DNA of 64,000 nucleotides from Squalus acanthias (lineage: Eukaryota): positions 129,706,001-129,770,000 of the forward strand of contig CM059431.1 of the NCBI GenBank assembly GCA_030390025.1, read 5' to 3'. Positions 17,041 to 59,667 of this stretch are shown piece after piece (position 1 is the stretch's first letter; each line of letters starts with the position of its first letter). A program made the translations under genes and the position numbers. The notes beneath the pieces are model-generated. The model worked only from the letters and a program-made list of their open reading frames with translations. It did no database searches and was not told the origin of the DNA.

Positions 17041-18240
17041 ACATAAGAACATAAGAAATAGGAGCAGGAGTAGGCCAATTGGCCCCTCGAGCCTGCTCCG
17101 CCATTCAATAAGATCATGGCTGATCTGATCCTAACCGCCAATCAACTATCACAGAACCATCTCCTGAACCTAACAGAATTGGACACACGAAATAGGAGCA
17201 GAATCAGGCTACACGGCCCCTGGGCCCGCTACACTACCCACAGGGCCATGACCGAGCCGAACCTAGACTCATGTCCAAATTCCTGCCCGCTCCCCGTAAC
17301 CCTCAATTCCCTTTACTTCTAGGAAACTGTCTATTTCTGTTTTAAATTTATGTAATGATGTAGCTTCTACAGCTTTTTGGGGCAGCATATTTCATGGACC
17401 TACCACCCTCTGAGTGAAGTAGTTCCTTCTCATCTCAGTTTTGAAAGAGCAGCCCCTTATTCTAAGACTATGCCCCCTAGTTCTAGTTTCACCCATCATC
17501 GGGAACATCCTCCCCGCATCCAACCCCTTCACAATCTTATATGTTTCAATAAGATCGCCTCTCATTCTTCTGAACTCCAATGAGTAGAGTCCCAATCTAC
17601 CCAACCTCTCCTCATATGTCCATCCCCGGGATTAACCGAGTGAACCTTCTCTGTACTGCCGCGAGAGCAAGTATGTCTTTTCTTAAGTATGGACACCAAA
17701 ACTGTATGCATTATTCCAGGTGCGGTCTCACCAATACCTTGTACAACTGAAGCAATACCTCCCTATTTTTACATTCTATCCCCTTAGCAATGAAAGCCAA
17801 CATTCCATTGGCCTTCTTAATCACTTGCTGCACCTGCATACTAACCTTTTGAGTTTCGTGCACCAGGACCCCCAGATCCCTTTGTACTTCAGTACTTTCC
17901 AGTTTCTTGCCATTAATAACTTGCTGTACTATTTTTCCTGCCAAAGTGCATAACCTCACACTTTCCAGTATTGTATTCCATCTGCCAAATTTCTGCCCAC
18001 TTACTTAGCCTGTCTATGTCCCCTTGCAGATTTTTTATGTCCTCCTCACTCACTACTTTCCCTCCCATCTTAGTATCATCTGCAAACTTTGATATGTTAC
18101 ACTCGGTCCCCTCCTCCAAATCGTTAATATAGATTGTAAAGAGTTGGGGACCCAGCACTGACCCCTGCGGAACACCACTTGTTACTGTTTGCCAGTCTGA
18201 GAATGAACCATTTATCCCAACTCTCTGCCTTCTGCTAGAT

Positions 18241-18390
18241 ATGATGTGGAGATGCCGGCGTTGGACTGGGGTGGACAAAAATGAGAAGTCGCACAAACTA
18301 ACTTACCTGACGAAGGAGCGAACTGTTCCGAAAGCTTGTAAAATTAAATAAATCTGTTGGACTATAACCTGGTGTTGTGCAACTTCTCAT
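18241..18390 (+). mobile_element. 150-bp Penelope-like pLTR-only insertion (inverted arm, hammerhead ribozyme, AATAAA)
   Basis: Homologous to the pLTR at 51070-51197. Degenerate TSD TTCTGCTAGAT (18230-18240) / TTCTGTTAGCT (18391-18401). Confidence 0.85.
18303..18341 (+). ncRNA. Minimal type I hammerhead ribozyme
   Basis: TTAC-CTGACGA-A-GGAGC(GAACT)GTTCC-GAA-AGCT-T-GTAA. Catalytic core CUGANGA/GAAA, stem I TTAC/GTAA and palindromic stem III AGCT. Confidence 0.8.
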
Positions 18391-19429
18391 TTCTGTTAGC
18401 TAGCCAATCCTCTATCCATGCCAGAATATTACCCCCAATCCCGTGATTTTTTTATCTTAAGCAATAATCTTGTGTGGCACCTTGTCAAATGCCTTTTGGA
18501 AGTCTAAATACACCACATCCACTGGTTCCCCTTTATCCACCCTGTCTGTTACGTCCTCAAAGAACTCCAGCAAATTTGTCAAACATGACTTCCCCTTCAT
18601 AAAACCATGCTGACTTTGTCCTATTAAATTATGATTATCCAAATGTCCTGTTACTGTCTCCTTAATAATGGACTCCAAAATTTTACCTACCACAGATGTT
18701 AGGCTAACCGGTCTATAGTTTCCAGCCTTCTGTCTACTGCCCTTTTTAAATAAAGGTGTTACATTAGCAGTTTTCCAGTCTGCCGGGATCTTTGCTGAGT
18801 CCAGGGAGTTTTGGAAAATTACCAATGCATCCACAATCCCTACCGCCACTTCCCTCAAGACCCTAGGATGTAAGCCATCAGGTCCAGGTGATTTATCCAC
18901 CTTGAGTCCCATTATTTTACCGAGTACCACTTCCTTAGTGATTTTGATCGTGTTTAGCTCCTTCCCCCCTATAGCCCCCGGTTTGTCCAGTGTTGGGATA
19001 TTCTTAGTGTCCTCTACTGTAAAGACTAATACAAAATATTCAGTGTTTTTGCCATCTCCATATTTCCCACCATTAATTTCCCAGTCTCATCCTCTAAGGG
19101 ACCAACATTTACTTTAGCCACCCTTTTTCTTTTTATATAACTATAAAAACTCACTATCTGTTTTCATATTTTTTGCTAATTTACTTTCATAATCTATCTT
19201 CCCTTTCTTAAAATCAATCTTTGTTATTTTTTGCTGTCTTTTAAAGTTTTCCCAATCCTCTATCTCCCACTAGATTTGGCTACCTTATAAGCCCTTGTTT
19301 TTAGTCGAATACTATCCTTAATTTCTTTACTTAGCCACGGATGACTGTCTTTTCTTTCACACCCTTTTCTTCTCAGTGGAATATATATTTTTTGGAAGTT
19401 ATAAAATAACTCCTTAAATGTACACCACT

Positions 19430-27079: not shown

Positions 27080-29005
27080 AGGCAGATCAGAAGATTGGAC
27101 AGAATATAAAAAACAGCAAAGAATGACTAAAAGATTAATGAGAAAAATTACAGTACAAGAGAAAGCTAGCTAGAAATATAAAAACAGATATTAAGAGTTT
27201 AGATATTTAAAAAAGACAAGTTAACAAAGTGAGCGTTGGTCCAAAAAAAAGTCTGGGGAATTAATAATGGAAAATAAGGAGATGGCAGTTGAATTGAACA
27301 GGTATTTTGTATCGGTCTTCACTATAGAGGATACAAGCAACATCCCAGAAATAGCTGTAAATCAGGAAATGGAAGGGAGGGAGGAACTCAAGAAAATTAT
27401 AATCACCAGGGAAGTGGTACTGAGCAAATTGTTGGAGCTGCGGGCTGTCAAGTCCTCAGGTCCTGATGGACTTCATCCTAGTGTCTTAAAAAAGACGTGG
27501 CTAGAGAGATAGTTGATGCGTTGGTTTTAATTTTCCAAAATTCTAGATTCGGGGAAGGTTCCATTAGATTGGAAAATAGCAAATGTAACTCCTTTATTCA
27601 AAAAGGGAGGGAGACAGAAAGCAGGAAACTACAGGCCAGTTAGCTTAACATCTGTCACAGGGAATATGTTAGAAGCTATTAAAGATGTTATAGCAGGGCA
27701 TTTAGAAAAGTTCAAAGTAATTGGGTAGAGTCAATGTGGTTTTGTGCAAGGGAAATCATGTTTAACCAATTTATTGGAGTTCTGAGGAAGTAACATGTGC
27801 TGTGGATAAAGGGGAACCAGTGGATGTACTGCATTTAGATTTCCAGAAGGCATTTGATAAGGTGCCACATCAAAGGCTATTGTGGAAAATAAAAGCTCAT
27901 GGTGTAGGGGGTAACGTATTGGCATGGATTGAAGATTGGCTAGCTAACAGGAAACACAGTAGGCATAAATGTCATTTTCTGATTGGCAAGATGTAACGAG
28001 TGGTGTGCCAGAGGCATCAGTGCTGGGGCCTCAACTTTTTACAATTTATATAAATGACTTGGATGAAGGGACCGAAGGTATGGTTGCTAAATTTGCTGAT
28101 GACAGATAGGTAGGAAAGTAAATTGTGAAGAGGACATAAGGAGGCTACAAAGGGATATAGATAAGTTAAGTGAGTGGGCAAAGATCTGGCAAATGGAGTA
28201 TAATGTGGGAAAATGTGAAGTTGTCCATTTTGGCAGGAAGAATAAAAAAAGCATTATCCAAATGGAGATTGCAGAGCTCAGATGCAGAGGATCTGGGTGT
28301 CCTAGTGCATGAATCACAAAAGGTTACTATGCAGGTACAGCAAGTAATTAGGAAAGCTAATAGAATGTTATTGTTTATTGCGAGGGGAATTGAATACAAA
28401 AGTAGAGAGGTTATGCTTCAGTTGTACAGGGCATTGTTGAGACCACATCTGGAGTACTGTGTACAGTATTGGTCTCTTATTTAAGGAAGGATGTAAATGC
28501 ATTGGAAGCAGTTCAGAGAAGGTTTAGCAGACTAATACCTGGAATGGGTGGGTTGTCTTATGAGGAAAGGTTGGACAGGCTAGGCTTGTATCTGTTGGGA
28601 GTTAAGAATAATAAGAGGTGACTTGATTGAAACATACAAGATCCTGAGGGGTCTGGACAAGGTGGATGTGGAGAGGATGTTTCCTCTTGTGGGAGAATCT
28701 AGAACTAGGGGGTCACTTTAAAAATAAGGGATCACCCATTTAAGACAGATGAGGAGAAATTTTCTTTGAGGGTCGTGAGTCTTTGGAACTCTTCCTCAGA
28801 GGTATGTTGAAGCAGAGTCTCTGAATATTTTTAAGGCAGAGATAGATAAGATTCTTGGTAAGCAAGGGGGTGAAAAGTTATCAGGGGTAGGTGGGAATGT
28901 GGAGTAATCAGATCAGCCATGATCTTACTGAATGGCAGAGCAGGCTTGAAGGGCTGAGTGGCCTACTCCTGCTCCTAATTCATATGTTCGTACGTTCATA
29001 TGTAT
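27080..29005 (+). mobile_element. CR1 LINE, 5'-truncated
   Basis: ORF2 motifs in 27267..27512, 27802..27996 and 28170..28484, followed by a CR1 3' UTR. Confidence 0.92.
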
Positions 29006-35100: not shown

Positions 35101-36287
35101 TTTTTTTAACCCCCACCCCCTTTCAAGATACCAAATCTCTCTGCAGATGGCCCAAGTTGGTAGGACACAATCTAACTACATTGTTCAAGCAGAAGATACA
35201 AAAATGCTCACATCTAGTATGCTTTATTGAAATACTGGCAGCAAACCCAACTACAGGCAATGCAGTATTTTAAATACTCCATGTGCCCTGGTGTTTAAAA
35301 ATGGTAAACTTGATAGGCATGGGGAAAATATTGACTAGTATCTTTATATAGAGGCTATAGTCCTACATGGTATAGTGTATCAAGTTTCATTGCACAGCAA
35401 GGTGGATAGAAGCACAAGGAAACCACTCATGGCAGTGCTCAGACTATTCTGCCTTTACCTTCCAATAAGAAAACTTGGAGAAACAGTCATTGTAAATGAC
35501 AATCATAATATTTTACATACAAATACTATTCAAACTAACAGAAGTTGGTCAGCTCATTGTAAAACTGGAAACAGGGTTTTAATGTAATTGTAGTTTAAAC
35601 TGCAATTATTTTACTATTCTTCAAGTAACCATTGCACCCATATGTAAAGATGAATACACCAAGATTCTCAAAAGGGCAAGAGGACATAACAAATAAGGCA
35701 AGCATATCTGGATGTGAAAAAGTATTCAATTTGTAATAAACCCAGAAGGTTTTTCAGCACTGCTCCACAATGGTTGAGGCAAATAACAGATGCCTTTAAA
35801 AGCAGAAGCAGAATGTAATCTAGCAATAAGCAGTACAAGGGGAAAGCACTGGAAACCAGTGTACTTTACACTGCATTGGTGCAACATATGCAAGTGAAAG
35901 CAAGACATTAAACTGCAAATATCTCAGCCAGTTAAACCACCCATGTACAACACAAATCCCCAAAACAAGTTTCAAAGAGCTTAACTTTGTTTTTTTTGGG
36001 GGGGGTGGGGAGAAAAAGAGAAAAAAATAGGAAAAAACAAAAATTAGAAATCCGTGAGATAAAATTAGAAATCCATGAGATTCTCACATGTGCCCTTCAA
36101 TATGAAGAGCGCTGTAAAAGAACAATTCCATGCTGGGCAGACCTACTTCCCCCACCACGCGTGGCTGCAGCCTGGGGTCGCTTCCTCCCCTCTTTCCACC
36201 CCCACACCCCAAACAAAAAAGGCGGGTCTGCAGGTTGTTCGTTCGCTGCATGCCCGCAGCCCACGCGGTGAATGGGTCAGTGCCGCC

Positions 36288-36437
36288 GGGGCTGTGGATT
36301 TGCCGCCGCCGCTGGGGCTGTGCATTTGTAGCCCACGCGCTCTGCCCCATGCACCCGGGGCCGTGGATTTGCAGCCCGCGCGCGCTGCCCTATGCACCCG
36401 GGGCAGTGCATTTGCAGCCCACGCGCTCTGTCCCATG
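36288..36437 (+). repeat. 43-bp GC-rich minisatellite, about three copies plus one partial
   Basis: Unit GGGGC.GTG.ATTTGCAGCCC.CGCGC.CTGCCC.ATGCACCC starts at 36314, 36357 and 36400, with a partial copy at 36288. Confidence 0.85.
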
Positions 36438-37933
36438 TCGCCGCCGCCACATTTTGCACGAGCCGCCACTCGACGTCGCGGGTCAACGGTCGGTCAGAAA
36501 TGACGCATTCGCCAAACCTCGAGCACACTTCACAACGGGCGGGGGGGCCGGGGGGGAAGAGAAATCGAACCGGCCGACAGTATCGGGAGAAAACGTATCG
36601 CCTTTCGACATCGATATGCAAAAAGGGATTCCAGTTCTTTTAAGTTTTTAATGGTTCGTTCCCCGAAAAAACTACTTCAACAGAAAGGCCCGAGGCCTAC
36701 ACGCGTGCTGCACGGCGCATGCGTATATGCCCCTCCCCCCCGCACAACATGGCGCCGCCGAGGCGAGAACCCCAAAAAAATATGAAACCCCTGAAAGAGG
36801 CGGCGGGGGACCCCGAGACTCCCCAGCCCGCGCTCGCCCCGCCGACCTCAGCCCCCATTACAAAAACACAGGGACCCAGCCCGCCAGTGGAGCGCGCGCC
36901 ACACACACACACACACACACGCGCGCGCGCCGTCCACGCGGCTGCCGCGCCAACGGTCTATTTTCAAATTGTAGAAGTCCAATAGCACGCGGCCACGGAC
37001 TCAGGCGGATTTAACGGGGGGGGGCGGGGGTGCCGAGGGCAGAATCAATCCGCCGCACCGGGGACACGGGCGCCACCCACCGCCGCTCCTCCTCCGGGCC
37101 GTGCGGCCTGGGCCCGCTCAAACATGTGGCTTTGTTCTGAGCAACTTTTATGAGGCGTACGGGGGGTGGGTAGGGAGAAGGGAAAAAAAGGATTTTTTTT
37201 TTTAAATAAAGACGAATGCCGCCGCCCGACCCCGGGGGGCAGCCTAAAAATAAAACACCGAGCGGGCTAATAGAAAGAAATACAAACCGAGCCGCCCCGA
37301 GACCACCCCTCCAGGCCCCGCTTTGTGACCCAGTTGTATGGATGGAGGCGGCGCGGCCCGGCCCGGCCCCACCACGCGGACTCGCCGCCACCCCGAGCAG
37401 CAACCGGCAATAACAAAGATACACACACACACACACAACCCACGGAAATGGCCGCAACTCCACGGAGTAGCCGACAGAGAAAGAGCTGGGGGGAAAGCGA
37501 GAGAGAGCGCGCGAGTACCAGGCCGGGGCTACAACGAAAACCCGGAGAGCAGAAAGCAGGAGAGGGAGAGAGGCCGGGAGCCGAAGAGAAAGCAAAAAAA
37601 AGAGAGCGAGGGTGGGTGGCGGGGGAGGAAAGCGAACCCCGCACCGGCCGGCCCACCGTACACCCGGGCCACCTTCACTCACACACTCGGGGCGGAGCGG
37701 AGCGGCCCCAGGCTTGGCCCCGACCCGCATCCAGCGCCGTGCTGCTGCTCTCGGTCGGGGGGGGAAGCTGCCACACGGTCTGTCCACGGAGGAGGATAGC
37801 GGTGAGTCTCCCCCTCCCCCGGCTCCCGGAGCCGCTGCTCACACCGAGCTGGTGTGCGCTTCCTTTCCTCTCTCTCTCTCCTGGAGGGAGCCAGGGCGCG
37901 GAGACGGTTTAAGTGCTGCGATTTCTCGAAAGT

Positions 37934-38052
37934 GGCGCGAATGCAGCACCATGTGGGTGAATGAAGGGCGGTTCCCGGCTCAACGTAAATATACTACACA
38001 CGGGCTCATTAGCATGTGGCCGAGTGTCAATCAGAGCCGCTGCCATAGCAAC
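37934..38052 (-). promoter_or_regulatory. Putative Pol II core promoter of the miR-17~92 host gene (TSS about 37962)
   Basis: On the minus strand, TATATTTA (37993-37986) begins 31 nt upstream of Inr-like TCATTC (A at 37962). Also present: E2F-like TTCGCGCC (37941-37934), CATGTG (37950-37955), octamer-like ATGCTAAT (38015-38008), TGATTGAC (38033-38026) and RFX X-box-like GCTGCCATAGCAAC (38039-38052). Confidence 0.7.
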
Positions 38053-39084
38053 CCTGCAAAAAAAACTATCTGCGTGCGTGCGCCCAGCGCCCACTCTGCT
38101 CAGCCAACTCCAAATTAAGTTTAATTGCACTGGCTTCAACCAATTTGTAATTCTGTTTTATTTTCTTTGAAACCGCAGCGATGAGGGCAATCAATAATTA
38201 ATTAATATGGATTACCCATTTACAGTTATCAAAAAAATCGCAAGTGAACTGGACTGGATTTACTCGGAACAAAACATTTTAAAGTTTTTGTGTTTTGGAT
38301 ACATTTTCAATTAAATCAAATAAAGGTTGAACAAACCACGTGTAAGAGCGTAAGCATAACTACTATTTTGCTGAAAATGAAAAACACTGGTTGCCTCCCC
38401 CCCCCCCAAAAAAAACCACATTTACACGTGCCTGCTTTTTTAAGGGGCACAACTACAGTAATGGAAACATAAAACGAATGGAAACGTAAACCTAAATCAT
38501 AACAATGAATCTTAACGTACTGAAAAAATAATAGTTGCATTCATGGAGCAGAATTGGTATTCCTCTAATTTAATATCGTCAATGTACAAATAGAGATTTT
38601 GTAAAATCCCTAGAAATTAAAAGAATTTACACATTTCTGAAGAAAAGGCACTGCATATATTTTAGATATACTGTTCCAGCATTTACTGAAAATGAAGGTT
38701 AAAGATGTGCCTTTTAATACTGAGGGAATCATTGAAAGTGTATGGTCATTTCTGTCAATCACATGCCCCAAACTATTATCAATATGCTTATTTATTTGTG
38801 ATTATATGTTGAGCTGAAGTTATGTTTAAATTGGGAAACAATTCACCTGTTTCAGGCAGCATTAAATCTGTCGCATTCTGATGTCACTGATTAATCGTCT
38901 GGTATCATTTATTGAACACTATCACCTTTTGATGTCAGTTAACAGGCAATACTGAAAGCTGTTTTTCATATTTGACATCAGTTGAGCAAAGTGCATTTAC
39001 CATTTTGGTCCCAAGGTATAATAACTATATAAAATAAACAAATAGCATAACAAAAAGGATGAAGTTCTGTTAAAAAGGAGCAGT

Positions 39085-40710: not shown

Positions 40711-43700
40711 AATAAAAGCAAATTACTTACCCCAGTCATACTGAGGTCAGGTACTGTGAGAACTAATACTAAGCCCATGATGATTGCCTGTATAATCTTT
40801 CTTGGAAATGTGGTCTGGGTTAGGGAGAAATGGAACATGCCACTATATGCATATTTTCAGCAAATAATCAGTAATTATACTTGGCATTACCAATGTTTTT
40901 GCCCATAAATGCACACCTAAATATTTCTAATTTGTGACATGATCTTTTATCTTTCTATTTTAAGTATTTCACAATAATGTCACTACTTTGCTGAAATAAC
41001 AAGCGGAAACCGTGATTTCCAGCAGTAATATGAAACAGATAAGTTAACACAAGGCTGCCATATGACAATGTATGAAGACAGTTGAAAAGCTTTATTATTT
41101 CAATGCTGATCATGGTACGAATGACATTTGCGCCCAGCTGTTAATGAAAAACAAATTAAGCAATAATGGATTCACAGGATTCACAGGAGTACAGTCAATT
41201 GAAATTAAAAGACCAGAGTTCAAATCCTCCAATCAAGCTGTCCATTCTCAATTTACAACCTACTCTACAACCACAAATTTACCGTTCTTATTCAACTATA
41301 TGCATGGATAATTAAATAAATAATCTGCTCTATCAGGTCTGTGCGCTTTGATGCAGTTTGTTGAAACCAGATGTTACAAGTCAGAGTCTTGCCTTAGATG
41401 TTCTCTTGGGTACACTGGTAGTTGTCACTCCTGTAAGTGGTCTGAGCGTCTTATGTTTAGGGGTGTGCTCGTACTACCCACTATCTAGACGATAGCATAA
41501 CCCAGGGGTGTAACAATAATATCCCTTGTTATCTGAACTGGATATTCATGTTTTTCACACACGCCCCCAAATCTCTTGACGACAGACTGAGAAAATATTT
41601 GGTAGGATGAGGCCAGATATAAATCATTACTTTGTTTTATTTCACAGTAAGTGAATGGAGAGAGCAACAGTTCTAATTGGAATTAGTTCAATCAGTACAA
41701 CTTGTCTTCACGTTAATTAATACACATTAATGAACATGCTACACTTTCCTACAGCAGTGGGTCATCTTGTTTGACTTTAATAAAATAGCTCTGTTTACGA
41801 TCCTACATTCTAGCCTTCTGAGTTGCAGCTTTTTGTTTAGAAACCTGACTGTGTGTCCCTATCTCTGTTTTTTTTAATCTCCCTGTTTTCACAACCAGAG
41901 TCGAGGGCCAATGCCAGACAACCCCCGCAAATTACCCACATCCAGGGACCTCCCAACACAATGGGTGTGTGGTGTTTATCAACTGCCAGGATATGCCAAT
42001 GGATGGCTTATTGTTTGTAGTCCATGCGGTCACAACTTCAGAATACAATTCACTTTGAAACACAACTCTTAAATGTGACTCTTTTTCCAAATCCTATCTC
42101 TGGAAAAAGGTTCAAGGAATCCCAAAAGATATATTTTCCTTTTCTTACAATACTTCAGTAGAATAGAAGTGATATGATTTAAGTGAAAGGATAATGATGT
42201 GGGGTGAGTCCTGTATTAGAATTTTTTGTCGCTATGTTATCAATGTGTATTATTTAATTATTTTACCTTGTTTGAAAATTCCCCATAACTATCATTTTTA
42301 AGACAAGTTAATGACCCAATCCTACAATTATCTATCTGCTGAAATATTGCATTTTGCTTTTCATGTCATTAAAGCTACACTTTCTACATTTTCTTATTAA
42401 GAACTGTTATATTTAAACATTATTTGTTTGAAGTTAAGAGTAACTTCCATTCAGTACAAAACTGATTGTCTGCATTATTAGCTCAACATTGCCCAAGGAA
42501 CATCCAGATTTCACCCACTGTTCTAATGCCCTGTGCATTGAATAAAACCTCGAAGCTGCTGGTGAAGGTCAGATAGTTGCCATGAAGCAGGATCTTCTAA
42601 TGGGACATTTCAACACTGATATAATAATTTTTTTTGAGTCAATAATGCTGTTAACCACTTGGAAGCAGAACAATATGTGTCAGCTGAAATATCCTGCCAC
42701 CCAATCACTGCCATACTTTTTTATTTTTTAGTGAATTCATTTTCAACAATTCAGGCAGGGGAAGGCTGCGCACCCCAGAGGAGCGAGAGCCTAATTTAAA
42801 TGGCAGTGTCGCATCCTGATGACCGCATTGGGATACGTATGCCATTTTAACCACGAGCCTGACTCTGGACCACACAGTCTTCAACCCATTGGCAAAAGCT
42901 AGCGGCAGCAAGGATCTTGGACACAGGGGGCCAAGGTCTGTAATTAAAAAAATGTTTTGCAGTTGCCTTGTGGATACCGTGGGCCTCCCCTGTTCTGGGC
43001 TTCCACCCCTGCCCCAATCACAGACATGCTAATTCCTCCCCCCCCAAATTCATACCTACCTTGCTAGTGACCATTTCTGTGAATTCTCAGTGGTGGCCTG
43101 AACCCCCACCAATTTTGACTCCCACCCTGTGGTGACATCATTCCCTTCATGTGGGTGTCAGTGCCAGGGCATGTAAATGAGTTTCATGAGTTCAAACCTC
43201 CTGGGCGTCACACTCCGGGGCGGGCGGGTGCAGACGGTTCAACCCTGCTTCGACCCCCCCCACCCCCGATTCCCACTCAAGATAAAATTAGTTCTTGGGT
43301 TTCTAAAAAACTCAAATGAAACAGTTTACATTGTAGGATTGTAATATTTTTCCAAAGCATGACATTTTTAATTTTTAAAAGCATGAAAGTATTTCCCAAA
43401 ATGAAGTAGTAGGAATGCATTTGAAGCTATTCCAAATAATTCATGTGATGTTGACAATCATGTGATTAATCTATGTTTGCTATTCTGAACTTTGTGTACT
43501 CTTTTGGTGATGCTGTAAACAAATAAACTGTAACTTAAAACATTAAAGGAAACTTAATAAATTAAATTAAAATTCCATTGCCGGTGGTGATAATGCACTC
43601 CAGTCCCTGCGGTGCCCATCGGTCGCGGAAGGCCTCGAGCGTGCCGACGGAAACCGCGTGCTCCATCTCCAGGGCCACCCGGGCACGAACGTGGCCGCGG

Positions 43701-43886
43701 AAGACAGGCAGGCAGTCGGACCGAACGACCCCCTCGACCGCCCACTGCCTGGACCAGTTGATGACCACTTTGGCCAGGCCCAGGAGCAGTCCTATGAGGA
43801 GGTCCCCTCCGCACCGGGTGACCAAAGATCAGGAGCGTAGGACTGAAGTGCAGCCAGAAATTGAGGAGCAGCCCCTTCAAATAGTG

Positions 43887-45213
43887 AGAAGTCGCACAAC
43901 ACCAGGTTATAGTCCAACAGTTTTATTTGAAATCACGAGCTTTCGGAGCGCTGCTCCTTCGTCAGGTAAAGTGAGGGAATACAAATCAGCAAAGCATATA
44001 TAGACAGAGAACAATGTGTCTCTGACTGCCCTCCATCACACCTCGGCAGAGATACAATCAGTCAGGAAGGCATTACATCAAAGACACAACAAAATACAGC
44101 TAAGACAATGAGGTGGGGTCACAGGGGGTCCAACGTGTCAAATGCTGCAGTCTGCAGTTAAGCTTTTTACTTTTTTTTAAAACTGGAAATCACATCTGTG
44201 AACAAGACAATGATGACTCGCGTCTGGATGACTCTACGTCATGTAGCGTGACATGAAACCAAGATCCCGGTTGAGGCCGTCCTCATGGGTGCGGAACTTG
44301 GCTATCAGTTTCTGCTCGATGATTTTGCGTTGTCGTGTGTCTCGAAGGCCACCTTGGAGAACGCTTACCCGCAGATCCGAGGCTGAATGTCCTTGACTGC
44401 TGAAGTGTTCCCCGACTGGGAGGTAACAATCCTGCCTGGCGATTGTTGCACGGTGTCCGTTCATACGTTGTCTCAGTGTCTGCATGGTCTCGCCGATGTA
44501 CCATGCTGCGGTGCATCCTTTCCTGCAACGTATGAGGTAGACAACGTTGGCCGAGTCACATGAGTATGTACCATGTACCTGGTGGGTAGTGTCCTCACGT
44601 GTGATGATGTTATCTGTGTTGATGATCTGGTATGTCTTGCAGAGGTTGCCGTGGCAGGGTTGTGTGGTGTCGTGGTCGCTGTTCTCCTGACAGCTGGGTA
44701 GTTTGCTGCGAACGATGGTACTTTTGAGGTTAGGCAGCTGCTTGAAGGCGAGTAGTGGAGGCGTGGGGATGGCCTTAGCAAGGTGTTCGTCGTCATCGTT
44801 CCAAATGCAAACCGGTTGCATCCTGTCTTTATCAGTGTTTACCGAGTATGATCCAATCTTATACTGAAATGTATATTCGACGCCATCTTGTCTGCCCACT
44901 GTATTTCTGGAAGCTTCTGCCACGATGCGCGGCGGCCATTTTACAGGCTTCTGTGTCCTTTATATCAGGACAGCATTTTGTTTAATAAAACTGATCAAAC
45001 GAATCTGCTTCTCTTATGTTATTTCGAATCGCGATAATTGCGAAACTTTACAGAGGTGTGATGGAGGGCAGTCAGAAACACATTGTTCTCTGTCGAAGGA
45101 GCAGCGCTCCGAAAGCTCGTGATTTCAAATAAAACTGTTGGACTATAACCTGGTCTTGTGCGACTTCTCATTTTTGTCCACCCCAGTCCAACACCGGCAT
45201 CTCCGCATCATGA
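43887..45213 (-). mobile_element. 5'-truncated Penelope-like element (GIY-YIG end, pLTR, unrelated filler, inverted pLTR arm)
   Basis: Segment 44234-44798 closely matches the 3' end of ORF 51197-53875. 13-bp TSD CCTTCAAATAGTG (43874-43886 / 45214-45226). Confidence 0.92.
43933..43969 (-). ncRNA. Minimal type I hammerhead ribozyme
   Basis: Minus strand TTAC-CTGACGA-A-GGAGC(AGC)GCTCC-GAA-AGCT-C-GTGA. Predicted cleavage after CUC. Confidence 0.8.
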
Positions 45214-45717
45214 CCTTCAAATAGTGGAAGAGGGGCTGCAACCTCTCACACTCCATGTATACATGGAACACGGACTCCTCCAGGCCACAGAAAAGGCAGG
45301 CAGCCTGGGAGTCCGTGAACCTACTTAAAACTTTATTGCACGGGACTGCTCCGTCCAGGCCAAGTCCCCAATAGATAAAGGGAGGACTCCTGCGTAGAGA
45401 GCCCTCCATTGGGGGCCTCCGCCGGACGGCAAGATGGTGTGCCAAGGCATGTCCGGACTGCAGACGAGGATGGCAAAATGGAGGGTGTGCAAGAGTAGCC
45501 CGTACAGGAAACCCCACCGTGCAGAATGAAAAGGCACAGAGGGCATTTCCCGGAGACAGCTCTGAACTTTGTGTAAAACACTCCTTATCAGTAATTGTTT
45601 GCCTATATTAAATCAATGCAAAACTAATTTTACACCAGAGTATAAACAACATATAGAATGCCTTTTTGTTTGTATTTCAGCCCAAAAAAAATACATAAAA
45701 AATAACAATGCATTGTT

Positions 45718-47715: not shown

Positions 47716-50281
47716 TATTAAACCAGGCATGCGCGTTTCCCGGCCCTATTAAAGGGTGCGGGTCTGATGATGTCATTGATAACTCATTTCCAGCGCCCAT
47801 ATTTAAAGCAGCCTTGCACACAACTCATTTGAAGGTGAGTAAAGGAGTGTGGAAGGAGCATTGATAAGGTTGGATTTATTGTGCAAAGTGATAAATATGA
47901 ATACCCAAAGGCAGAGGGCTGCACCCCACTTTACAGATGCCTCACTGCATATTCTGGTCAAGGCAGTAAGAGCACGCAGGGAGGTCCTCTTCCCAGCAGA
48001 TGGGCGCAAGAGACCTCCCCAAGAGACCAAAAGGGCCTGGCTGGAAATAGCAGAGGAGGTCAGCAGCAGGGAGGTCATGAGGAGGACCTGGATACAGTGC
48101 AGGGAGAGTTTCAATGGTCTGCTGAGGTCAGGAAAGGTGAGTGCAATGCCACACTCACCTTCATCCTGATGTGCCTGTCACCACATCCCCATCACTCTGC
48201 CTTCCCAAGCCTACTCCTGCACATCATTACTCACACCAACATACCGTCCCGGTCCATCCATCGCTCTCTCTCTATGTACATACAGTACTCACATTCCCAT
48301 CTGACTAATCACCCCTCACACTCATCCTCATCCTAATGCAATCATAGCAAGTAACACCACAGAAGGAGGCCATTTGGCATTGCCACCCCACTCCCTCATA
48401 GTCACCCTCTACAGATGTAACCCATCCATTCCTTACGCTCATTCCATCACTCTCACTCAAACTTCCCTTCTTTCCCTCCTTGCAGGAGCAAAGAGCCTAG
48501 AACAACAGAGAGAGGGAGAGAACTGGAGGTGGCCCTTCAGTCTTCGCACACCTAACAGCAGCAGAGGAGGGGGCTCTGGAGATCTCGGGAGCTCGAGATG
48601 CTGGCGGTGGGAGATGGACATCCCAGCAACCTGGTGACAGAATCACGTCTCATAAAGCCACATGGCATACAACAGTCACTCATATGGTGACTGATGTCAG
48701 CAGCCAGTGAAATGTCACAGAGTCATAGTCAGAGAGTTATACAGCACAGAAAGAGGCCCTTCGGCCCATCGTGTCCACGCCGGCCATCAAGCCCTGTCTA
48801 TTCTAATCCCATTTTCCAGCACTTGGTCCGTAGCCTTGTATGCTATGGCGTTTCAAGTGCTCATCTAAATGCTTCTTGAATGTTGTGAGGGTTCCTGCCT
48901 CTACCACTCTTTCAGGCAGTGAGTTCCAGATTCCAACCACCCTCTGGGTGAAAAAGTTTTTCCTCAAATCCCCTCTAAACCTCCTGCCCCTTACCTTGAA
49001 ACTATGCCCCCTTGTTAGTGACCCCTCTACTAAGGGGAAAAGGTCCTTTCCATCTACCCTATCTATGCCCCTCATAATTATGTACACCTCAATCAGGTCC
49101 CCCCTCAGCCTTCTCTGCTCTAAGGAAAACAACCCCAGCCTGTCCAGTCTCTCTTCATAGCTGAAACGCTCCAGCCCAGCTAACATCCTGGTGAATCTCC
49201 TCTACACCCTCTCTAATGCAATCACCTCCTTCCTATACTGTGGCGACCAGAACTGCACACAGTATTCCAGCTGTGGCCTAAGTAGCGTTTTGTACAGCTC
49301 CATCATAACCTCCCTGCTCTTATATTCTATGCCTCGGCTAATGAAGGTAAGTATCCCATATGCCTTTTTAACCACCATATCTACCTGTCCTGCTGCCTTC
49401 AGGGATCTATGTACATGCACACCAAGGTCCCTCTGATCCTCTGTCCTTCCTAGGGTCCTACTATTCATTGTGTATTCCCTTGCCTTGTTAGTCCTCCCAA
49501 AATGCATCACCTCACACTTTTCAGGGTTAAATTCTATTTGCCACTGTTCTGCCCATCGGATCAACCGGTCTATATCGTCCTGTACCCTGAGGCTTCCCTC
49601 CTCGCTGTTTACCACCCCACCAATTTTCGTGTCATCTGCGAACTTACTGATCATACCTCCTACATTCATATCTAAATCATTAATGTACACTACAAACAGC
49701 AAAGGACCCAGCACCGATCCCTGCGGTACACCACTGGACACAGGCTTCCAGTCACAAAAACAACCTTCGACCATCACCCTCTGCCTCCTGCCACTAAGCC
49801 AATTTTGGATCCAATGTGCCAAGTTGCCCTGGATCCCATGGGATCTTACCTTCTTGACCAGTCTCCCATGTGGGACTTTGTCAAAAGCCTTACTGAAGTC
49901 CATGTAGACCACATCAACTTCACTACCCTCATCCACACACCTAGTCACCCCCTCGAAAAATTCAATCAAATTGGTCAGACATGATCTCCCCCTGACAAAG
50001 CCATGCTGACTATCCTTGATTAATCCTTGCCTCTCCAAGTGGAGACTAATTCTGTCCCTCAGAATTTTTTCCAGTAATTTCCCTACCACTGATGTTAGGC
50101 TCACTGGCCTATAATTCCCTGGTTTATCCCTACTACCCTTCTTGAATAATGGTACTACGTTAGCTGTTCTCCAGTCCTCTGGCACCTCCCCTGTGATGCG
50201 GAGATGCCGGTGTTGGACTGGGGTGGACAAAATTGAGAGGTCGCACAACACCAGGTTATAGTCCAACAGTTTTATTTGAAA

Positions 50282-50319
50282 TCACAAGCTTTCGGAACTA
50301 TCGCTCCTTCCTCAGGTGA
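50282..50319 (-). ncRNA. Minimal hammerhead ribozyme (copy in the inverted pLTR)
   Basis: Reverse complement of 51072-51109. Confidence 0.8.
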
Positions 50320-51071
50320 AGTAAATTGGATACAGAATCGTCAGAGCATATATAGATGGAAAAAAAAGCATGTGTACTTTACAATTGCAGACCAATAAAT
50401 TAAATCATCCTGACTATCTGCCGAGGTGTGATAAAGTTAATTAAGTCAGCCAGGAAGGTACCACATCAAAAGACATAGCAAGATACAACTGAGACAATGA
50501 GGTGAAGTCGCAGGGGTTCTAACGTGTCAAAAGCTGCCGTCTGTATGTAAAACGAAAAGCTTTAAAAAGCAGTCAAGGACATTCAGCCTCGGATCTGCGG
50601 GTAAGCGTTCTCCAAGGCAACCTTAGAAACACACGACAACGCAAAATCATCGAGCAGAAACTGATAGCCAAGTTCTGCACTCATGAAGACGGTCTCAATC
50701 GGGATCTTGGGTTTATGTCACGATACATGACGTGATCCGGACTCGAGTCGTCGTTAGCTTGTTCACAGATGTGATTCCCAGTAAAAAAGTAAAAATTTTC
50801 CCAGTAAAAAAGTAAAAATTTTTTTTTAAAGCTTTTCGTTTTACATACAGACGGCAGCTTTTGACACGTTAGAACCCCTGCGACTTCACCTCATTGTCTC
50901 AGTTGTATCTTGCTATGTCTTTTGATGTGGTACCTTCCTGGCTGACTTAATTAACTTTATCACACCTCGGCAGATAGTCAGGATGATTTAATTTATTGGT
51001 CTGCAATTGTAAAGTACACATGCTTTTTTTTCCATCTATATATGCTCTGACGATTCTGTATCCAATTTACT

Positions 51072-51109
51072 TCACCTGAGGAAGGAGCGATAGTTCCGAA
51101 AGCTTGTGA
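51072..51109 (+). ncRNA. Minimal type I hammerhead ribozyme (5' pLTR)
   Basis: TCAC-CTGAGGA-A-GGAGC(GATA)GTTCC-GAA-AGCT-T-GTGA. Preceded by TATATA (about 51037) and followed by AATAAA (51115-51120). Confidence 0.82.
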
Positions 51110-51196
51110 TTTCAAATAAAACTGTTGGACTATAACCTGGTGTTGTGCGACCTCTCAATTTTGTCCACCCCAGTCCAACACCGGCATCTCCGCATC

Positions 51197-53875
51197 ATGA
51201 CCACTATCGACACCACAAACTGCCGGCTCAAAGTGGAGAGAATCGCCAAGAAGATCGCGCATATCGACACCGACATCAAGTATCTACAGAGATGCAAGAA
51301 AGCAGACAAGATCCCGAAAGGACTACAGATCACGAACCCACTCAAGTCGACATACAACACAGACTACGCTGAGAGACTCTGCCGTCGTACCTCTCGCACA
51401 CTCCTCAACCATCTCGTACACCAGCTCTACAGCAAACGCCACAACCTCGAAACCAAGATAGAGTCCATGCTCTCAGCCTGTGCTCAGGACACAGCAGACC
51501 AGTTACGAGACACCACCAAACAGACGAGGCAACGGAACTACGCTGCCTACATGCGCATCAAGAACAGGAAGCTTGAGAAACTCGGCATCACCACCAGCAG
51601 CAACCAAGCCTCCCCCGGTACCACGGCTGCAACCACAGGGAAGTCCATCGTCAACTTGTCCGACCATACCCTTCAACCAGACGAAATCGAAGTTCTCGCC
51701 CTAGGGCTCAAGTTCTGCCCAACCACCAAAATGGACCCCATCGGTCTCGCGGCAGACACGGAGGAATTCATCAGGAGAATGAGGCTCCGGGAATACTTCC
51801 ACAAATCCCAAGATGTCAGCAACAAACCCAATGAGACAATCAATGATCCAGAACAGCAGACAGAGGGACTCGCAGTGCAGCAACCGAAGAAAAAAGAGTC
51901 AAACTGGACCCCTCCGGAGGGTCGCTGCCCCAAGCTTGACATGTATGCTCAAGCTGTCAGGAAATGCATCAACGCCAGATTCATCAGCCGCACTCACAAG
52001 ACAGTCCAGAATGTCACCCGAGCACAACGCAACGCCATCCACGCTCTCAAGACCAACCGCAACATTGTCATCAAACCAGCGGACAAAGGAGGAGCCATCG
52101 TCATACAGAACAGAACGGACTATTGTAAAGAAGCATACCGACAACTGGACAACCAGGAACACTACAGACAGCTACCCGCAGATCCGACCAAAGAACACAC
52201 CCGCCAACTCAATAGACTGATCAAGACCTTCGATCCAGACCTTCAAAACATCCTACGCGCTCTCATCCCACGTACTCCCCGCGTGGGAGACTTCTACTGC
52301 CTCCCAAAGATACACAAAGCCAACACACCCGGACGTCCTATCGTATCAGGCAATGGAACCCTGTGTGAGAACCTCTCTGGATACGTCGAGGGCATTCTGA
52401 AACCCATCGTACAGGGAACCCCCAGCTTCTGTCGCGACACTACAGACTTCTTACAGAAACTCAGCACCCACGGACCAGTTGAACCAGGAACACTCCTTGC
52501 CACGATGGACGTATCGGCACTCTACACCAGTATCCCCCACGATGACGGCATCGCTGCAACAGCCTCAGTACTCAACATCAACAACAGCCAATCTCCAGAC
52601 GCCATCCTACAACTCATCCGCTTCATCCTTGACCACAATGTCTTCACCTTCGACAACCATTTTTTTACCCAAACACACGGAACAGCCATGGGGACCAAAT
52701 TCGCACCCCAATACGCCAACATCTTCATGCACAAGTTCGAGCAAGACTTCTTCGCTGCACAGGACCTCCAGCCAACGCTGTACACCAGATACATCGACGA
52801 CATTTTCTTCCTTTGGACCCATGGCGAAGGATCACTGAAAAGACTACACGATAACATAAACAAGTTCCATCCCACCATCAAACTCACCATGGACTACTCC
52901 TCAGAATCGGTCTCATTCCTGGACACACGAATCTCCATCAAAGACGGACACCTCAGCACTTCACTCTACCGCAAGCCCACGGACAACCTCACGATGCTCC
53001 ACTTCTCCAGCTTCCACCCTAACCATGTTAAAGAAGCCATCCCCTATGGACAAGCCCTGCGAATACACAGGATCTGCTCAGACGAGGAGGAACGCGATGG
53101 ACACCTACGGACGCTGAAAAACGCCCTCGTAAGAACGGGATATGACGCTCGACTCATCGATCGACAGTTCCGACGGGCCACAGCGAAAAATCGCATAGAC
53201 CTCCTCAGAAGGCAAACACGGGACACAACCAACAGGGTACCCTACGTCGTCCAGTACTTCCCCGGAGCGGAGAAACTACGACATGTTCTTCGCAGCCTTC
53301 AACATGTCATCGATGACGACAAACACCTCGCTAAGGCCATCCCCACGCCTCCACTACTTGCCTTCAAACAGCCGCCTAACCTCAGAAGTACCATCGTTCG
53401 CAGCAAATTACCCAGCTTTCAGGATAACAGCGACCACGACACCACACAACCCTGCCATGGCAAACTCTGCAAGACATGCCAGATCATCAACACAGATACC
53501 ACCATCACACGTGAGGACACTACCCACCAGGTACATGGTACATACTCATGTGACTCGGCCAACGTTGTCTACCTCATACGTTGCAGGAAAGAATGCACCG
53601 CGGCATGGTACATCGGCGAGACCATGCAGACACTGAGACAACGTATGAACGAGCACCGCGCAACAATCGCCAGGCAGGATTGTTACCTCCCAGTCGGGGA
53701 ACACTTCAGCAGTCAAGGACATTCAGCCTCGGATCTGCGGGTAAGCGTTCTCCAAGGCAACCTTAGAAACACACGACAACGCAAAATCATCGAGCAGAAA
53801 CTGATAGCCAAGTTCTGCACTCATGAAGACGGTCTCAATCGGGATCTTGGGTTTATGTCACGATACATGACGTGA
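51197..53875 (+). CDS. Penelope-like reverse transcriptase plus GIY-YIG endonuclease (892 aa from the first ATG)
   Basis: Uninterrupted ORF. RT motifs IKPADKGG, FYCLPKIHK, GRPIVS, MDVSALYTSIP, GTAMG and RYIDD. Cys linker PCHGKLCKTC. Endonuclease motifs VVYLIRC...WYIGET...RMNEH...E...GLN. Confidence 0.96.
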   Translation: MTTIDTTNCRLKVERIAKKIAHIDTDIKYLQRCKKADKIPKGLQITNPLKSTYNTDYAERLCRRTSRTLLNHLVHQLYSKRHNLETKIESMLSACAQDTADQLRDTTKQTRQRNYAAYMRIKNRKLEKLGITTSSNQASPGTTAATTGKSIVNLSDHTLQPDEIEVLALGLKFCPTTKMDPIGLAADTEEFIRRMRLREYFHKSQDVSNKPNETINDPEQQTEGLAVQQPKKKESNWTPPEGRCPKLDMYAQAVRKCINARFISRTHKTVQNVTRAQRNAIHALKTNRNIVIKPADKGGAIVIQNRTDYCKEAYRQLDNQEHYRQLPADPTKEHTRQLNRLIKTFDPDLQNILRALIPRTPRVGDFYCLPKIHKANTPGRPIVSGNGTLCENLSGYVEGILKPIVQGTPSFCRDTTDFLQKLSTHGPVEPGTLLATMDVSALYTSIPHDDGIAATASVLNINNSQSPDAILQLIRFILDHNVFTFDNHFFTQTHGTAMGTKFAPQYANIFMHKFEQDFFAAQDLQPTLYTRYIDDIFFLWTHGEGSLKRLHDNINKFHPTIKLTMDYSSESVSFLDTRISIKDGHLSTSLYRKPTDNLTMLHFSSFHPNHVKEAIPYGQALRIHRICSDEEERDGHLRTLKNALVRTGYDARLIDRQFRRATAKNRIDLLRRQTRDTTNRVPYVVQYFPGAEKLRHVLRSLQHVIDDDKHLAKAIPTPPLLAFKQPPNLRSTIVRSKLPSFQDNSDHDTTQPCHGKLCKTCQIINTDTTITREDTTHQVHGTYSCDSANVVYLIRCRKECTAAWYIGETMQTLRQRMNEHRATIARQDCYLPVGEHFSSQGHSASDLRVSVLQGNLRNTRQRKIIEQKLIAKFCTHEDGLNRDLGFMSRYMT

Positions 53876-54211
53876 TCCGGACTCGAGTCGTCGTTAGCTT
53901 GTTCACAGATGTGATTCCCAGTAAAAAAGTAAAAATTTTCCCAGTAAAAAAGTAAAATTTTTTTTTTAAAGCTTTTCGTTTTACATACAGACGGCAGCTT
54001 TTGACACGTTAGAACCCCTGCGACTTCACCTCATTGTCTCAGTTGTATCTTGCTATGTCTTTTGATGTGGTACCTTCCTGGCTGACTTAATTAACTTTAT
54101 CACACCTCGGCAGATAGTCAGGATGATTTAATTTATTGGTCTGCAATTGTAAAGTACACATGCTTTTTTTTCCATCTATATATGCTCTGACGATTCTGTA
54201 TCCAATTTACT

Positions 54212-54249
54212 TCACCTGAGGAAGGAGCGATAGTTCCGAAAGCTTGTGA
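54212..54249 (+). ncRNA. Minimal type I hammerhead ribozyme (3' pLTR)
   Basis: Identical to 51072-51109, offset by 3140 bp. Confidence 0.82.
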
Positions 54250-57023
54250 TTTCAAATAAAACTGTTGGACTATAACCTGGTGTTGTGCGACCTCTCAATT
54301 TTGACCTCCCCTGTGGCCAGAGATGTTCTGAAAATTTGTGTCAGAGCCTCTGTAATCTCCTCCCTTGCCTCACACAGCAGCCTGGGATACATCTCGTCTG
54401 GGCCTGGGGATTTATCCACTTTTAAGCCCGCTAAAACCGCTAGTACCTCCTCCCTCTCAATACTAATTTGTTCAAGTATATCACAATCCCCCTGTCTGAT
54501 TTCTATGCCTACATCGTCCTTCTCCATCGTGAACACAGATGCAAAATATTCATTTAAAACCCCATCTACATCTTCTGGCTCTACACACAGATTGCCACTT
54601 TGGTCCCTAATGGGTCCTACTCTTTCCCTGGTTACCCTCTTGCCCTTAATATACTTATAAAACACCTTGGGATTTTCCTTTATTTTGCCCGCCAGTGTTA
54701 TTTCATGCCCCCTCTTCGCTCTCCTAATTTCTTTTTTAAGTACCCCCCTGCACTTTCTATACTCCTCTAGGGCTTCCACTGTTTTTAGTCCTTTGTATCT
54801 GCCAAAAGCCTCCCTTTTTTTCCTAATCCATTCTCATATATCCCTTGACATCCAGGGTTCCCTGGGCTTGTTGGTCCCACCCTTCACCTTTACGGGAACA
54901 TGTTGCCGTTGTACTATCTCTATTTCCTTTCTGAAAGACTCCCACTGCTCTGATGTGGATTTTCCTACAAGTAGCTGATCCCAGTCCACTTTGGCCAGAT
55001 CCTGCCTTATCATATTAAAATCGGCCTTCCCCCAATTTAGAACCTTTATTTCCGGTCCATCTTTGTCCTTTTCCATGACTACCTTAAATCTCACCGAATT
55101 ATGGTCACTGTCACCAAAATGCTCCCCTACTAACACTTCTACCACTTGCCCGGCTACATTCCCTAGAATTAGGTCCAGTACCACCCCCTCTCTTGTAGGA
55201 CTTTCTACATGCTGGCTCAAAAAGCTCTCCTGGATGCACTTTAAGAATTCCGCACCCTCTAAGCCTTTCACACTCTGACTATCCCAGTTAATATTGGGGA
55301 AGTTGAAATCCCCTACTATTATTACCCTATTATTTCTACACTTCTGAGATTTGCCTACATATCTGTTCCTCTATCTCCCCCTGACTGTTTGGGGGCCTAT
55401 AGTACACTCCCAGCAAAGTGCTTGCCCTCTTTTTGTTTTGAAGTTCTACACATATGGCCTCATTAGAGGAACCTGCTAAGATATCATCCCTCCTTACAGC
55501 AGCAATTGACTCCTTGATTAATATTGCGACACCCCCTCCTCTTTTACACCCACCTCTGTCTCGCCTGAAGATTCTATACCCCGGAATATTGAGCTGCCAG
55601 TCCTGCCCCTCCCTCAACCATGTCTCTGTGACAGCAACAATATCATACTCCCATGTGTTCATCAACACCTTCAATTCATCTGCCTTACTCGCAAGACTCT
55701 TTGCATTAAAATAAATGTCATCCAGCCTTGCCATACTCCCTTGTGCCGTTACATATTTGCTCTGCCTTCCAGGCTGACTTGTTTATTCCTCTATATTTGG
55801 CTGTGCATCACCCCCTACTATAGCTCCACTCCGTATCCCATCCCCCTGCCAAGTTAGTTTAAACCCCCCCCAACAGTACTAGCAAACCTCCCCGCAAGGA
55901 TGTTGGTCCCATTCCGGTTCAGGTGCAACCCATCCGACTTGTACAGGTCCCACCTTCCCCAGAAGCAGACCCAGTGATCCAGGAAACTAAAGCCCTCCCT
56001 CCTGCACCAACTCTTTAGCCACGCATTCATCTGCTCTATCCTCCTATTCCTATACTCACTAGCACGTGGCACCGGGAGTAATCCAGAGATTACAACCTTT
56101 GAGGTCTTGCTTTTTAATCTGCTACCTAGCTCCCTAAATTCTTGTTCAGGACCTCATCCCTCTTTCTACCCATGTCGTTGGTACCAATGTGAACCACGAC
56201 CTCTGACTGTTCGCCCTCCCCCTTCAGAATGCCCTGCAGCCATTCGGTGACATCCTTGACCCTGGCATCGGGGAGGCAACATACCATCCTGGCGTCACGT
56301 CTGCGGCCACAGAAACGTCTATCTGTTCCCCTTACGATAGAATCCCCTATCACTATTGCTCTCCCATTCTTTTCCTCCCCTCCTGTGCAGCTGAGCCACT
56401 CGTAGTGCCATGGACTTGGCTTTTGCTGCATTCCCCTGAGAAACCATCTCCCCCATCAGTATCCAAAACGGAAAATCTGTCGGAGAGGGAGATGGACCCA
56501 GGGGACTCCTGCACTACCTTCCTAGTTCTTTTACTCTGTCTGGTGGTCACCCATTCCCTGTCTGCCTGTGCACTCTTTACCTGCGGTGTGACCACCTTGT
56601 TAAATGTGCTATCCACGAAGATCTCAGCTTCGCGGATTCTCCACAGTGACTCCAGCCGCAGCTCCAGCTCCGAAACGCGGATTTCGAGTAGCTGCAGCTG
56701 GAGACACTTCCTGCACATGTGTTCGCCCTGGACATCTAAAGTGTCCCTGACTTCCAACATAGCACAGGAGGAGCACTCCATGCTGCCGAGCTGCCCTGCC
56801 ATGTCCTACCCTGAATTTACTCCTTTTAAATTAAAGAATATTAAATACACTAGGGACCTTACTTCCCTTTAAACACTACTTCCTCTAAACTGGAGACCTT
56901 ACTTTTACTTTAATGACTGGAATGTAGAAAGACTGTAGAAATACTCACCGCTGGTTCTCTGTCCCCTCTTGTGCAGCTTTTTAGCTCCTGCTCTCCTGGA
57001 AGCTGACAAAGATGGAAAAAGGA

Positions 57024-59011: not shown

Positions 59012-59667
59012 ATAACAACAGAAAATGCTGGAAACACTCAGCAGTTCAGGCAGCATCCGTGGAGAGAGAAACAGAGTTAACGTTTCAGGTCTGTGACCCT
59101 TTGTCTCTGGAAAAAGTTAGAGATATAACAGATTTTAAGCAGGTGCAGAGGCAGAAAGGGAGGAGGGGAGGAAAGAACAAAAGGAACGGTCTGTGATTGG
59201 GTGGAAGGCAGGAGTGGTTAAATGTTGCAAATGGGGATGGCAAAATCATCAACTACTGCCACCTGAAAAAATAGGGGCAGAAGTTGTGGTCTGAAATTGT
59301 TGAACTCAATGTTGAGTCCAGACGGCTGTAAAGTGCCTATTCGAAAGATGAGGTGCTGTTCCTCGAGCTTACGTTGAGCTTCATTGGAACAGTGTAAGAG
59401 GCTGAGGACAGAGAGGTCAGAGTGGGAGTGGAGCGGAGAATTAAAGTGACAAGCGACCGGAAGCTCGGGGTCACCCTTACGTACTGAACGGAGGTGTTCC
59501 GCAAAGCGGTCACCCAATCTGCGTTTGGGTCTCCCCAATGTAGAGGAGACCGCATCGTGAGCAGCGAATACAGTATACTAAATTGCAAAATATACAAGTA
59601 AATCACTGTTTCACCTGGAAGGAGTGTTGAGGAAAAAGGAAGACATATCGGAAGCACGAGTATGGAA
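59012..59667 (-). mobile_element. 3' fragment of a second Penelope-like family (GIY-YIG C-terminus plus pLTR)
   Basis: RRLGDRFAEHLRS...PVACHFNS...RKLEEQHLIFRIGTLQPSGLN. 15-bp TSD GATGATTCTGGAGAA (58997-59011 / 59668-59682). Confidence 0.88.

Follow-up and report, generated by a model that had tools for sequence, protein, structure and literature searches.

Inverted half-sites around three insertions of a Penelope-like element in Squalus acanthias suggest target cutting and priming by a dimeric protein

A stretch of 64,000 nt from Squalus acanthias (the window, within which all positions are numbered) contains an intact Penelope-like element (PLE) at 50196-54303, referred to here as the focal copy or copy 1, and two older copies of its family, copy 2 (43874-45226) and copy 3 (18230-18402). 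The target-site duplications (TSDs) of the three insertions are 12, 13 (maximal), and 12 bp, and inverted half-sites are present around all three, with a consensus of approximately CTCTGSC-N12-GSCAGAG. It is likely, with a probability of roughly 0.65, that a dimeric protein nicks both strands 12 bases apart and primes reverse transcription from both ends. The fuller form of this proposal, in which the reverse transcriptase (RT)-endonuclease (EN) of a vertebrate PLE would act as a restriction-enzyme-like dimer, reading this consensus, cutting with a fixed 12-nt 3′ stagger, and making cDNA from both ends, is more tentative and falls a little short of an even chance. As an element, the focal copy is a standard member of a known group; the target architecture is the new part.

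The features of the three copies and of the focal host site are as follows.

50177-50183, minus strand: left half-site, GCCAGAG read outward, a perfect 7-bp inverted repeat with 54316-54322.
50184-50195, plus strand: left TSD copy, 12 bp, ACCTCCCCTGTG, the last 2 bases of which also fit the element.
50196-50568, minus strand: inverted, 5′-truncated pseudo-long terminal repeat (pLTR) arm bearing the tail and containing a hammerhead (50319-50282) and a TATA (~50348), both reversed.
50568-51163, plus strand: 5′ pLTR, 596 nt from the 3′ end of a tandem unit lying upstream (final 55 codons plus 3′ untranslated region, UTR), from repeat comparison.
51037-51042, plus strand: TATATA, candidate promoter, a motif kept in the older subfamily copy (motif and young/old alignment).
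51072-51109, plus strand: minimal type I hammerhead, predicted to cut after 51105 (custom descriptor).
51115-51120 and also 54255-54260, plus strand: AATAAA directly 3′ of the hammerhead, candidate poly(A) signal.
51164-51196, plus strand: 33-nt tail between the pLTR end and the ATG, present in the inverted arm and missing from the 3′ end.
51197-53875, plus strand: stop-free open reading frame (ORF) of 892 aa, from the ORF list.
53708-54303, plus strand: 3′ pLTR, tail-less, with a hammerhead at 54212-54249 (repeat comparison and hammerhead descriptor).
54304-54315, plus strand: right TSD copy, 12 bp, ACCTCCCCTGTG.
54316-54322, plus strand: right half-site, GCCAGAG.
43874-45226, minus strand: copy 2, an inverted tail-bearing arm, ~250 bp of unrelated filler, and a 3′ ORF part with pLTR, within a 13-bp maximal TSD.
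18230-18402, plus strand: copy 3, a 56-bp inverted tail-bearing arm and a 96-bp direct tail-less end.
48850-56760 (approximate), minus strand: host long interspersed nuclear element (LINE), which we take to be of CR1 type, split by the element, its ORF2 containing stops and a frame change.

Read outward, the flanks are GCCAGAG and GCCAGAG at the focal site, GGCTGCT and GGAAGAG at copy 2 (after one microhomology base is assigned to the element), and GCCAATC and GGCAGAG at copy 3. Inverted arms that match at 7/7 positions around a 12-nt spacer, as at the focal site, are equalled at 9 of 57,875 control positions. Copy 3 agrees with the focal half-site at 10/14 bases (0.04 % of positions), and copies 2 and 3 together agree at 18/28 (p=1e-5); other registers of copy 2 give 15/28 (p=1e-3) or 13/28 (p=0.01). 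With each site left out of its own profile, the focal site, copy 2, and copy 3 score among the best 0.002, 0.3, and 0.04 % of window positions. A profile built from copy 3 only places the focal site first among 3,644 host-CR1 positions at all five half-site lengths, and in 15 of 15 settings it ranks between 1 and 4 of these positions and within ≤0.035 % of window positions. Both half-site scores peak exactly at the proposed nicks. In the read contigs, a joint in run X3 between 54297 and 54921, within the CR1, scores best at offset 0 of nine offsets (top 1.4 %), and two tail-bearing direct ends join CR1 at the focal base in different forms, at 51202 in run X1 and at 51196 in X3.

These sites could instead belong to an ordinary young Neptune-type element with a loose target preference, its protein being a monomeric nickase that acts on the two strands one by one, with symmetry that arises by chance or from base composition. 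The layout is the published standard, PLE endonucleases are described as having moderate preference and variable TSD length (PMC8557442), there are three insertions, and copy 2 fits in one register only. The rank of the focal site in every setting, its complete symmetry, and the read joints at the same base speak against this explanation, which is considered unlikely.

The structure of the copies suggests priming from both ends. In all three, the left TSD edge borders an inverted arm that carries the tail, and the right edge borders a direct end that lacks it; the arm and the direct part meet with 1 shared base in the focal copy, ~4 extra bases in copy 3, and ~250 bp of filler in copy 2. The cutting, priming, joining, and template steps would run as follows. 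Each subunit would recognise one half-site and nick immediately 5′ of GSCAGAG, and the resulting 12-nt 3′ overhangs would give rise to the TSD. One overhang would prime at the pLTR end and produce the long, tail-less direct copy; from the other, synthesis would begin 33-39 nt further 3′, close to the ATG where the tail ends, and yield the short inverted arm, an arrangement we take to be twin priming. The two cDNAs would be joined by microhomology or filler. The more-than-unit copy would derive from a tandem read-through, circular, or template-jumped RNA, which may be a product of the hammerheads. In a TATA-driven transcript the tail would be confined to the region of the 5′ end, and full progeny would therefore require a circular, tandem, or jumped template. 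Tandem junctions are common: in many contigs of X1 and X3 the pLTR end (54301-54303) runs back into the tail (51164-51169). One read joint, 51197 to 54267, runs from the tail into a 37-bp new end.

For the dimer, a homodimer prediction for residues 1-330 scored 0.50, compared with 0.00 for the best of three controls, with an interface at residues 42-80; the runs agreed in at least 31 % of contacts with a predicted local distance difference test score (pLDDT) of at least 63. The mark used is reached by 17 of 29 eukaryote homodimers (7 of 16 from animals) and by none of 30 single chains. The N-terminal part of the protein is therefore predicted to homodimerise. One full-length PLE protein has been tested in vitro, that of the Poseidon-clade element PAc from Anolis carolinensis (PMC11167929). 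It cuts and extends both strands, as proposed here, its two RT start sites bracket the tail, and it is likewise predicted to form a dimer, head-to-tail via an N-terminal helix.

A real preference would also be compatible with one monomer that reads the motif twice in turn (nick, cDNA, second nick), the arm being formed by self-priming or template switching. Junction symmetry cannot separate simultaneous from sequential cuts, and the published account of inverted arms is self-priming (PMC3846280). However, in 3/3 copies the inverted arm abuts the TSD edge with its tail end, as target priming predicts; the internal junction of the focal copy has 1 shared base, against palindromes of 18-38 bp in Adineta copies (PMC3846280); and the homodimer prediction passes. 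A sequential monomer is also considered unlikely, slightly more so than loose preference.

Very improbable is a third account, that the element selects targets resembling its own tail, through RNA-DNA pairing or through homing to tail-like DNA, or targets in which palindromic DNA extrudes a hairpin. In tail likeness the focal target ranks within the top 1 %, and targets 1 and 2 hold inverted repeats of 7 and 8 bp. Targets 2 and 3 are nevertheless not tail-like (53 and 15 % of controls equal them), two other host sites outscore the focal target, and the arms of target 3 pair at only 3/7 positions yet carry the motif. The anole enzyme, in addition, starts at RNA sites without homology to the cut DNA (PMC11167929). 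Tail mimicry as a general targeting rule was rejected, as it applies to one of the three targets.

Several points weigh against a dimer that cuts and primes at both ends. There are only three insertions, and the motif was found after these had been inspected. Copy 2 needs its 13-bp TSD to be cut by one microhomology base on one side, matching at 8/14 positions when shortened, 5/14 when unshortened, and 3/14 when shortened on the other side, and the copy 3 TSD, which was read by eye, carries two mismatches, the exact-match search having found none. The joints at the same base in X1 and X3 could alternatively represent deletion alleles at a single locus; both are tail-bearing direct ends, so the polarity is not strict. 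The dimer test used a fragment without an alignment, and its pass may rest on memory, as only one of seven eukaryote pairs without an older solved relative passed. The anole enzyme shows no strand difference in its start site, so strand polarity is unsupported in vitro, and it prefers AT-rich ATT (PMC11167929). Inverted arms have also been explained by self-priming on an antisense template (Arkhipova et al., PMC3846280).

Further junctions of the family were sought, with no matches in two metagenome scans or in a viral scan. Among the 24 read-contig loose ends listed, two are single flanks behind the pLTR end, with 5/7 and 4/7 matches after a 1-base shift (by eye, uncounted). A 5′ flank at 54027 in run X8 has no half-site fit by eye, and the loose end at 51205 is a mixture. 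A flank behind the pLTR end in X3 has no copy within the window. A fifth end-like match, at 27463, lies in a CR1 and was rejected as fortuitous. Inside the element, the half-site profile scores highest at 53457 (12.5), on the codons of the Cys linker, which is a possible self-insertion site.

The anatomy of the focal copy bears out the preliminary description, to which the tail, the flanking inverted half-sites, and the two older copies are additions. The two 596-bp direct repeats reported there were recovered by repeat comparison with a single difference (50818/53958), at the boundary of an A/T run. The 373-bp inverted arm, with a spacing of 254 nt to its partner, was likewise confirmed: 50194-50568 is the exact reverse complement of 50823-51197, with 0 differences in 375, and the arm is 373 bp once the 2 bases common to the TSD are assigned to the TSD. 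The 12-bp TSD is perfect, as described; uninterrupted CR1 contigs in three non-RNA runs hold the 12-mer once, joined to the left flank, and the TSD reading therefore holds. The TATATA, ribozyme, and leader attributed to the 5′ repeat are present as motifs before the ATG, with predicted roles. This partial tandem with an inverted arm, a tail of the 30-40-bp class (as in PMC3846280 and PMC11167929), and a short TSD is the layout of endonuclease-containing (EN+) PLEs. The focal copy is an intact, recently copied EN+ PLE of standard layout.

The 892-codon stop-free frame was correctly described as carrying RT and GIY-YIG motifs, and its catalytic residues are intact. It matches Pfam RVT_1 (E=1.4e-8) and has an N-terminal helical region, DKG at 296, RT residues D438, GTAMG, and YIDD (532-535), and a CX4CXXC linker (C753-X4-C758-X2-C761) between the RT and the C-terminal EN. 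The GIY-YIG region contains Y792/Y805, CCHH (C796/C800/H836/H842), R816, H820, E866, and N881, among which Y792, C796, C800, Y805, R816, H820, H836, and H842, together with G807, are nearly invariant across 50 aligned rows. A local Pfam search of the ORF gave no GIY-YIG match; many homologues carry PF01541. Among 169 well-conserved columns, the protein departs from the consensus at five, in each case with a residue that 3-8 other rows share. The structure model has a pLDDT of 89 and its best fold match is telomerase TERT (E=5e-9), with TERT entries at ranks 1-11; a PDB sequence search found no relative. It is probable that the focal copy is able to make protein.

A single ORF with a telomerase-like RT and a GIY-YIG with CCHH and R, H, E, and N is as found in EN+ PLEs. 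The C-terminal EN and hammerhead motif differ from Naiad and Chlamys (N-terminal EN; in Naiads, no canonical hammerhead), and the linker differs from Penelope and Poseidon, which have no CX2-5CxxC. Such a linker marks Neptune or Nematis and excludes Poseidon (PMC8557442), and Neptune and Poseidon are the PLE clades reported in vertebrates (bioRxiv 10.64898/2026.07.22.740005). The Cys-rich linker had been called typical of the Neptune group, and C753-C761 fits the published definition (PMC8557442). By its linker and vertebrate occurrence the element is classed as Neptune-type, the tree holding database matches only.

The protein search gave 666 matches at E≤1e-20, of which 120 were listed. Among those listed, the closest are shark models, from Heptranchias perlo (92 % protein identity; P0001, P0003), Scyliorhinus torazame (86 %; P0004), and Mustelus asterias (82 %; P0006). 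The Heptranchias cluster has 54 members, the six shark models fetched or aligned are partial (510-728 aa) and annotated as uncharacterized, and the exact 892-aa protein is absent from the protein collection searched. A quick tree was built from 50 rows, comprising the window protein and 49 of the 120 listed matches; it places the window protein with Heptranchias (support 95) within a clade of sharks (100). Horizontal transfer from distant taxa, which had been raised beforehand, finds no support, as this tree shows no sign of it and the protein nests among shark proteins.

The hammerhead at 51072-51109 has a 4-bp stem I, CUGAGGA with an extra A, a 5-bp stem II, GAAA, and a palindromic AGCU. The descriptor for minimal hammerheads found five matches in the 64 kb, all within this family, those at 54212-54249 and 50319-50282 included, and stem changes in the older copies preserve pairing. 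An Rfam search of the window returned no hammerhead and one chance small RNA (sRNA) match, and the fold z-scores are weak (-0.25 to -1.8). The short helix I, the extra base at 9/10.1, the G10.1-C11.1 pair, and the palindromic 15.2-16.2 are as in the minimal hammerheads of metazoan PLEs (PMC4209133); this predicted ribozyme is an ordinary member of that type, with no difference from the type as described there. RNA circularization by hammerheads has been proposed (PMC4209133), and in the anole PLE in vitro hammerhead cleavage is dispensable (PMC11167929). The direct part of copy 3 begins at the equivalent of 51069, ~30 nt past the TATA, a 5′ boundary that, in this one case, fits a transcription start there. 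A candidate 68-nt 5′ UTR intron (51106-51173) opens with GTGATT at the very position of the predicted hammerhead cut and closes inside the tail with a pyrimidine tract and CAG; splicing would drop the AATAAA. Drosophila Penelope has an intron beside the hammerhead (PMC4209133). No removal of the candidate intron was seen among the read-contig joints listed.

The focal copy had been called very young. The near-identity of the pLTRs stands, whereas the divergence allows for greater age: for one difference in 1,565 bp, divergence may reach 0.3 % (95 % upper bound), and with the 7e-10 per generation given for the epaulette shark (PMC10587355) this corresponds to as many as ~4.3 million generations; the rate is that of another species, and methylated repeats may mutate faster. 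Compared with collapsed contigs of another organism (X10), the focal copy differs at 18 of 2,279 bases. Decay after insertion would predict ~12 differences among the three pLTR copies, of which one is seen (P ~5e-5); the 18 differences were therefore inherited from the source lineage. Of the 18 ORF differences from other copies among those listed, 11 are synonymous and 7 non-synonymous, which points to recent selection for function in the source lineage. At all 18 sites X1 also has contigs without the other letter (depth being no measure of copy number), a hint that the window variants are not private to the focal copy. Read runs labelled with four other organisms contained 56-70 % of the sampled words, and none of the runs with sampled words is on record as RNA. 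In X8, whose RNA status is a guess, 30 of 30 bins are covered, CR1 flank included, which gives no firm sign of expression. The focal copy is a candidate for present activity. Empty-site ends at 54304 in X1, X3, and X10 were rejected as proof of polymorphism, since CR1 is multicopy and the contigs are not locus-specific; the X10 empty-site contig differs from the host by 24 letters and 2 gaps in ~1,300.

In copy 2, the filler at 44800-45045 lies between the inverted arm and the ORF remnant, has no second match in the window, and was possibly captured by template switching. It holds two AAGATGGCG/AAAATGGCC motifs, presumably YY1-like. A 16-bp pLTR segment (50960-50975 and 54100-54115, compared with 44035-44050) is inverted between the young and older subfamilies; the TATATA and hammerhead downstream of it are kept in both. 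The host flanks of copy 2 (43600-43873 and 45227-45500) resemble, by eye, the 3′ part of a LINE that we take to be L1/Tx1-type, so that on these presumed labels two insertions are in CR1-type copies and one in an L1/Tx1-type copy. At 59311-59617 (minus strand) another Penelope-like family, more distantly related, is represented by a 3′ fragment with 40 % aa identity to the endonuclease. A CpG island at 36100-38100 (GC 0.59-0.63), with splice-donor-like GTGAGT at ~37802 (plus) and ~37680 (minus), is perhaps a bidirectional promoter, and the focal element may be located in a first intron, no coding exon having been identified.

Among known systems, the Neptune clade shares with this element an RT followed by a C-terminal GIY-YIG with CCHH and a CX2-5CxxC linker (Arkhipova 2006, as described in PMC8557442), as well as pLTRs, a tail, an inverted 5′ arm, and a hammerhead (PMC8557442). 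In that account the Neptune linker is tied to a microsatellite bias with variable TSD length, and PLEs in general have a moderate preference with microsatellite or rDNA bias; the three targets described here are, in contrast, non-repetitive, with inverted half-sites at 12-13 bp spacing. PAc also has a minimal hammerhead, although this overlaps the ORF start and the tail of PAc is located 111-118 nt into the ORF, whereas both lie before the ATG here; unlike this element, PAc/Poseidon has no Cys linker, and no bipartite palindromic target is reported for PAc in the part of PMC11167929 covered. Pen2a_Av of Adineta vaga (PMC3846280) likewise has two direct pLTRs and a shorter inverted pLTR, with a 31-bp tail, a TATA in the pLTR, and a 9-10-bp TSD, and differs in having a stop codon, another host and clade, and no target motif given in the text covered. 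Partial tandems are there called potentially active, and the layout is termed a 'typical Penelope structure'. The literature search found no bipartite palindromic or fixed-stagger PLE targets and no PLE twin priming (Arkhipova 2006, Pyatkov 2004, Repbase entries, and the supplements of PMC11167929 and PMC8557442 were outside its scope).

As its architecture is already the published standard, an intact young PLE is alone of limited novelty, and such an element in a shark is ordinary; the target is the useful part. The symmetric site, proposed fixed stagger, and intact ORF allow precise predictions of where nicks fall, which primers are used, and whether a dimer is needed, and the intact copy is a ready reagent for examining the proposed mechanism. 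An 892-aa RT-nuclease with a site preference would also be of interest for retroelement insertion tools. The origin of the inverted arms and one-sided tails of PLEs has been named as an open question (PMC8557442). If true, priming from both ends would explain the inverted-pLTR-plus-tail structure of these elements.

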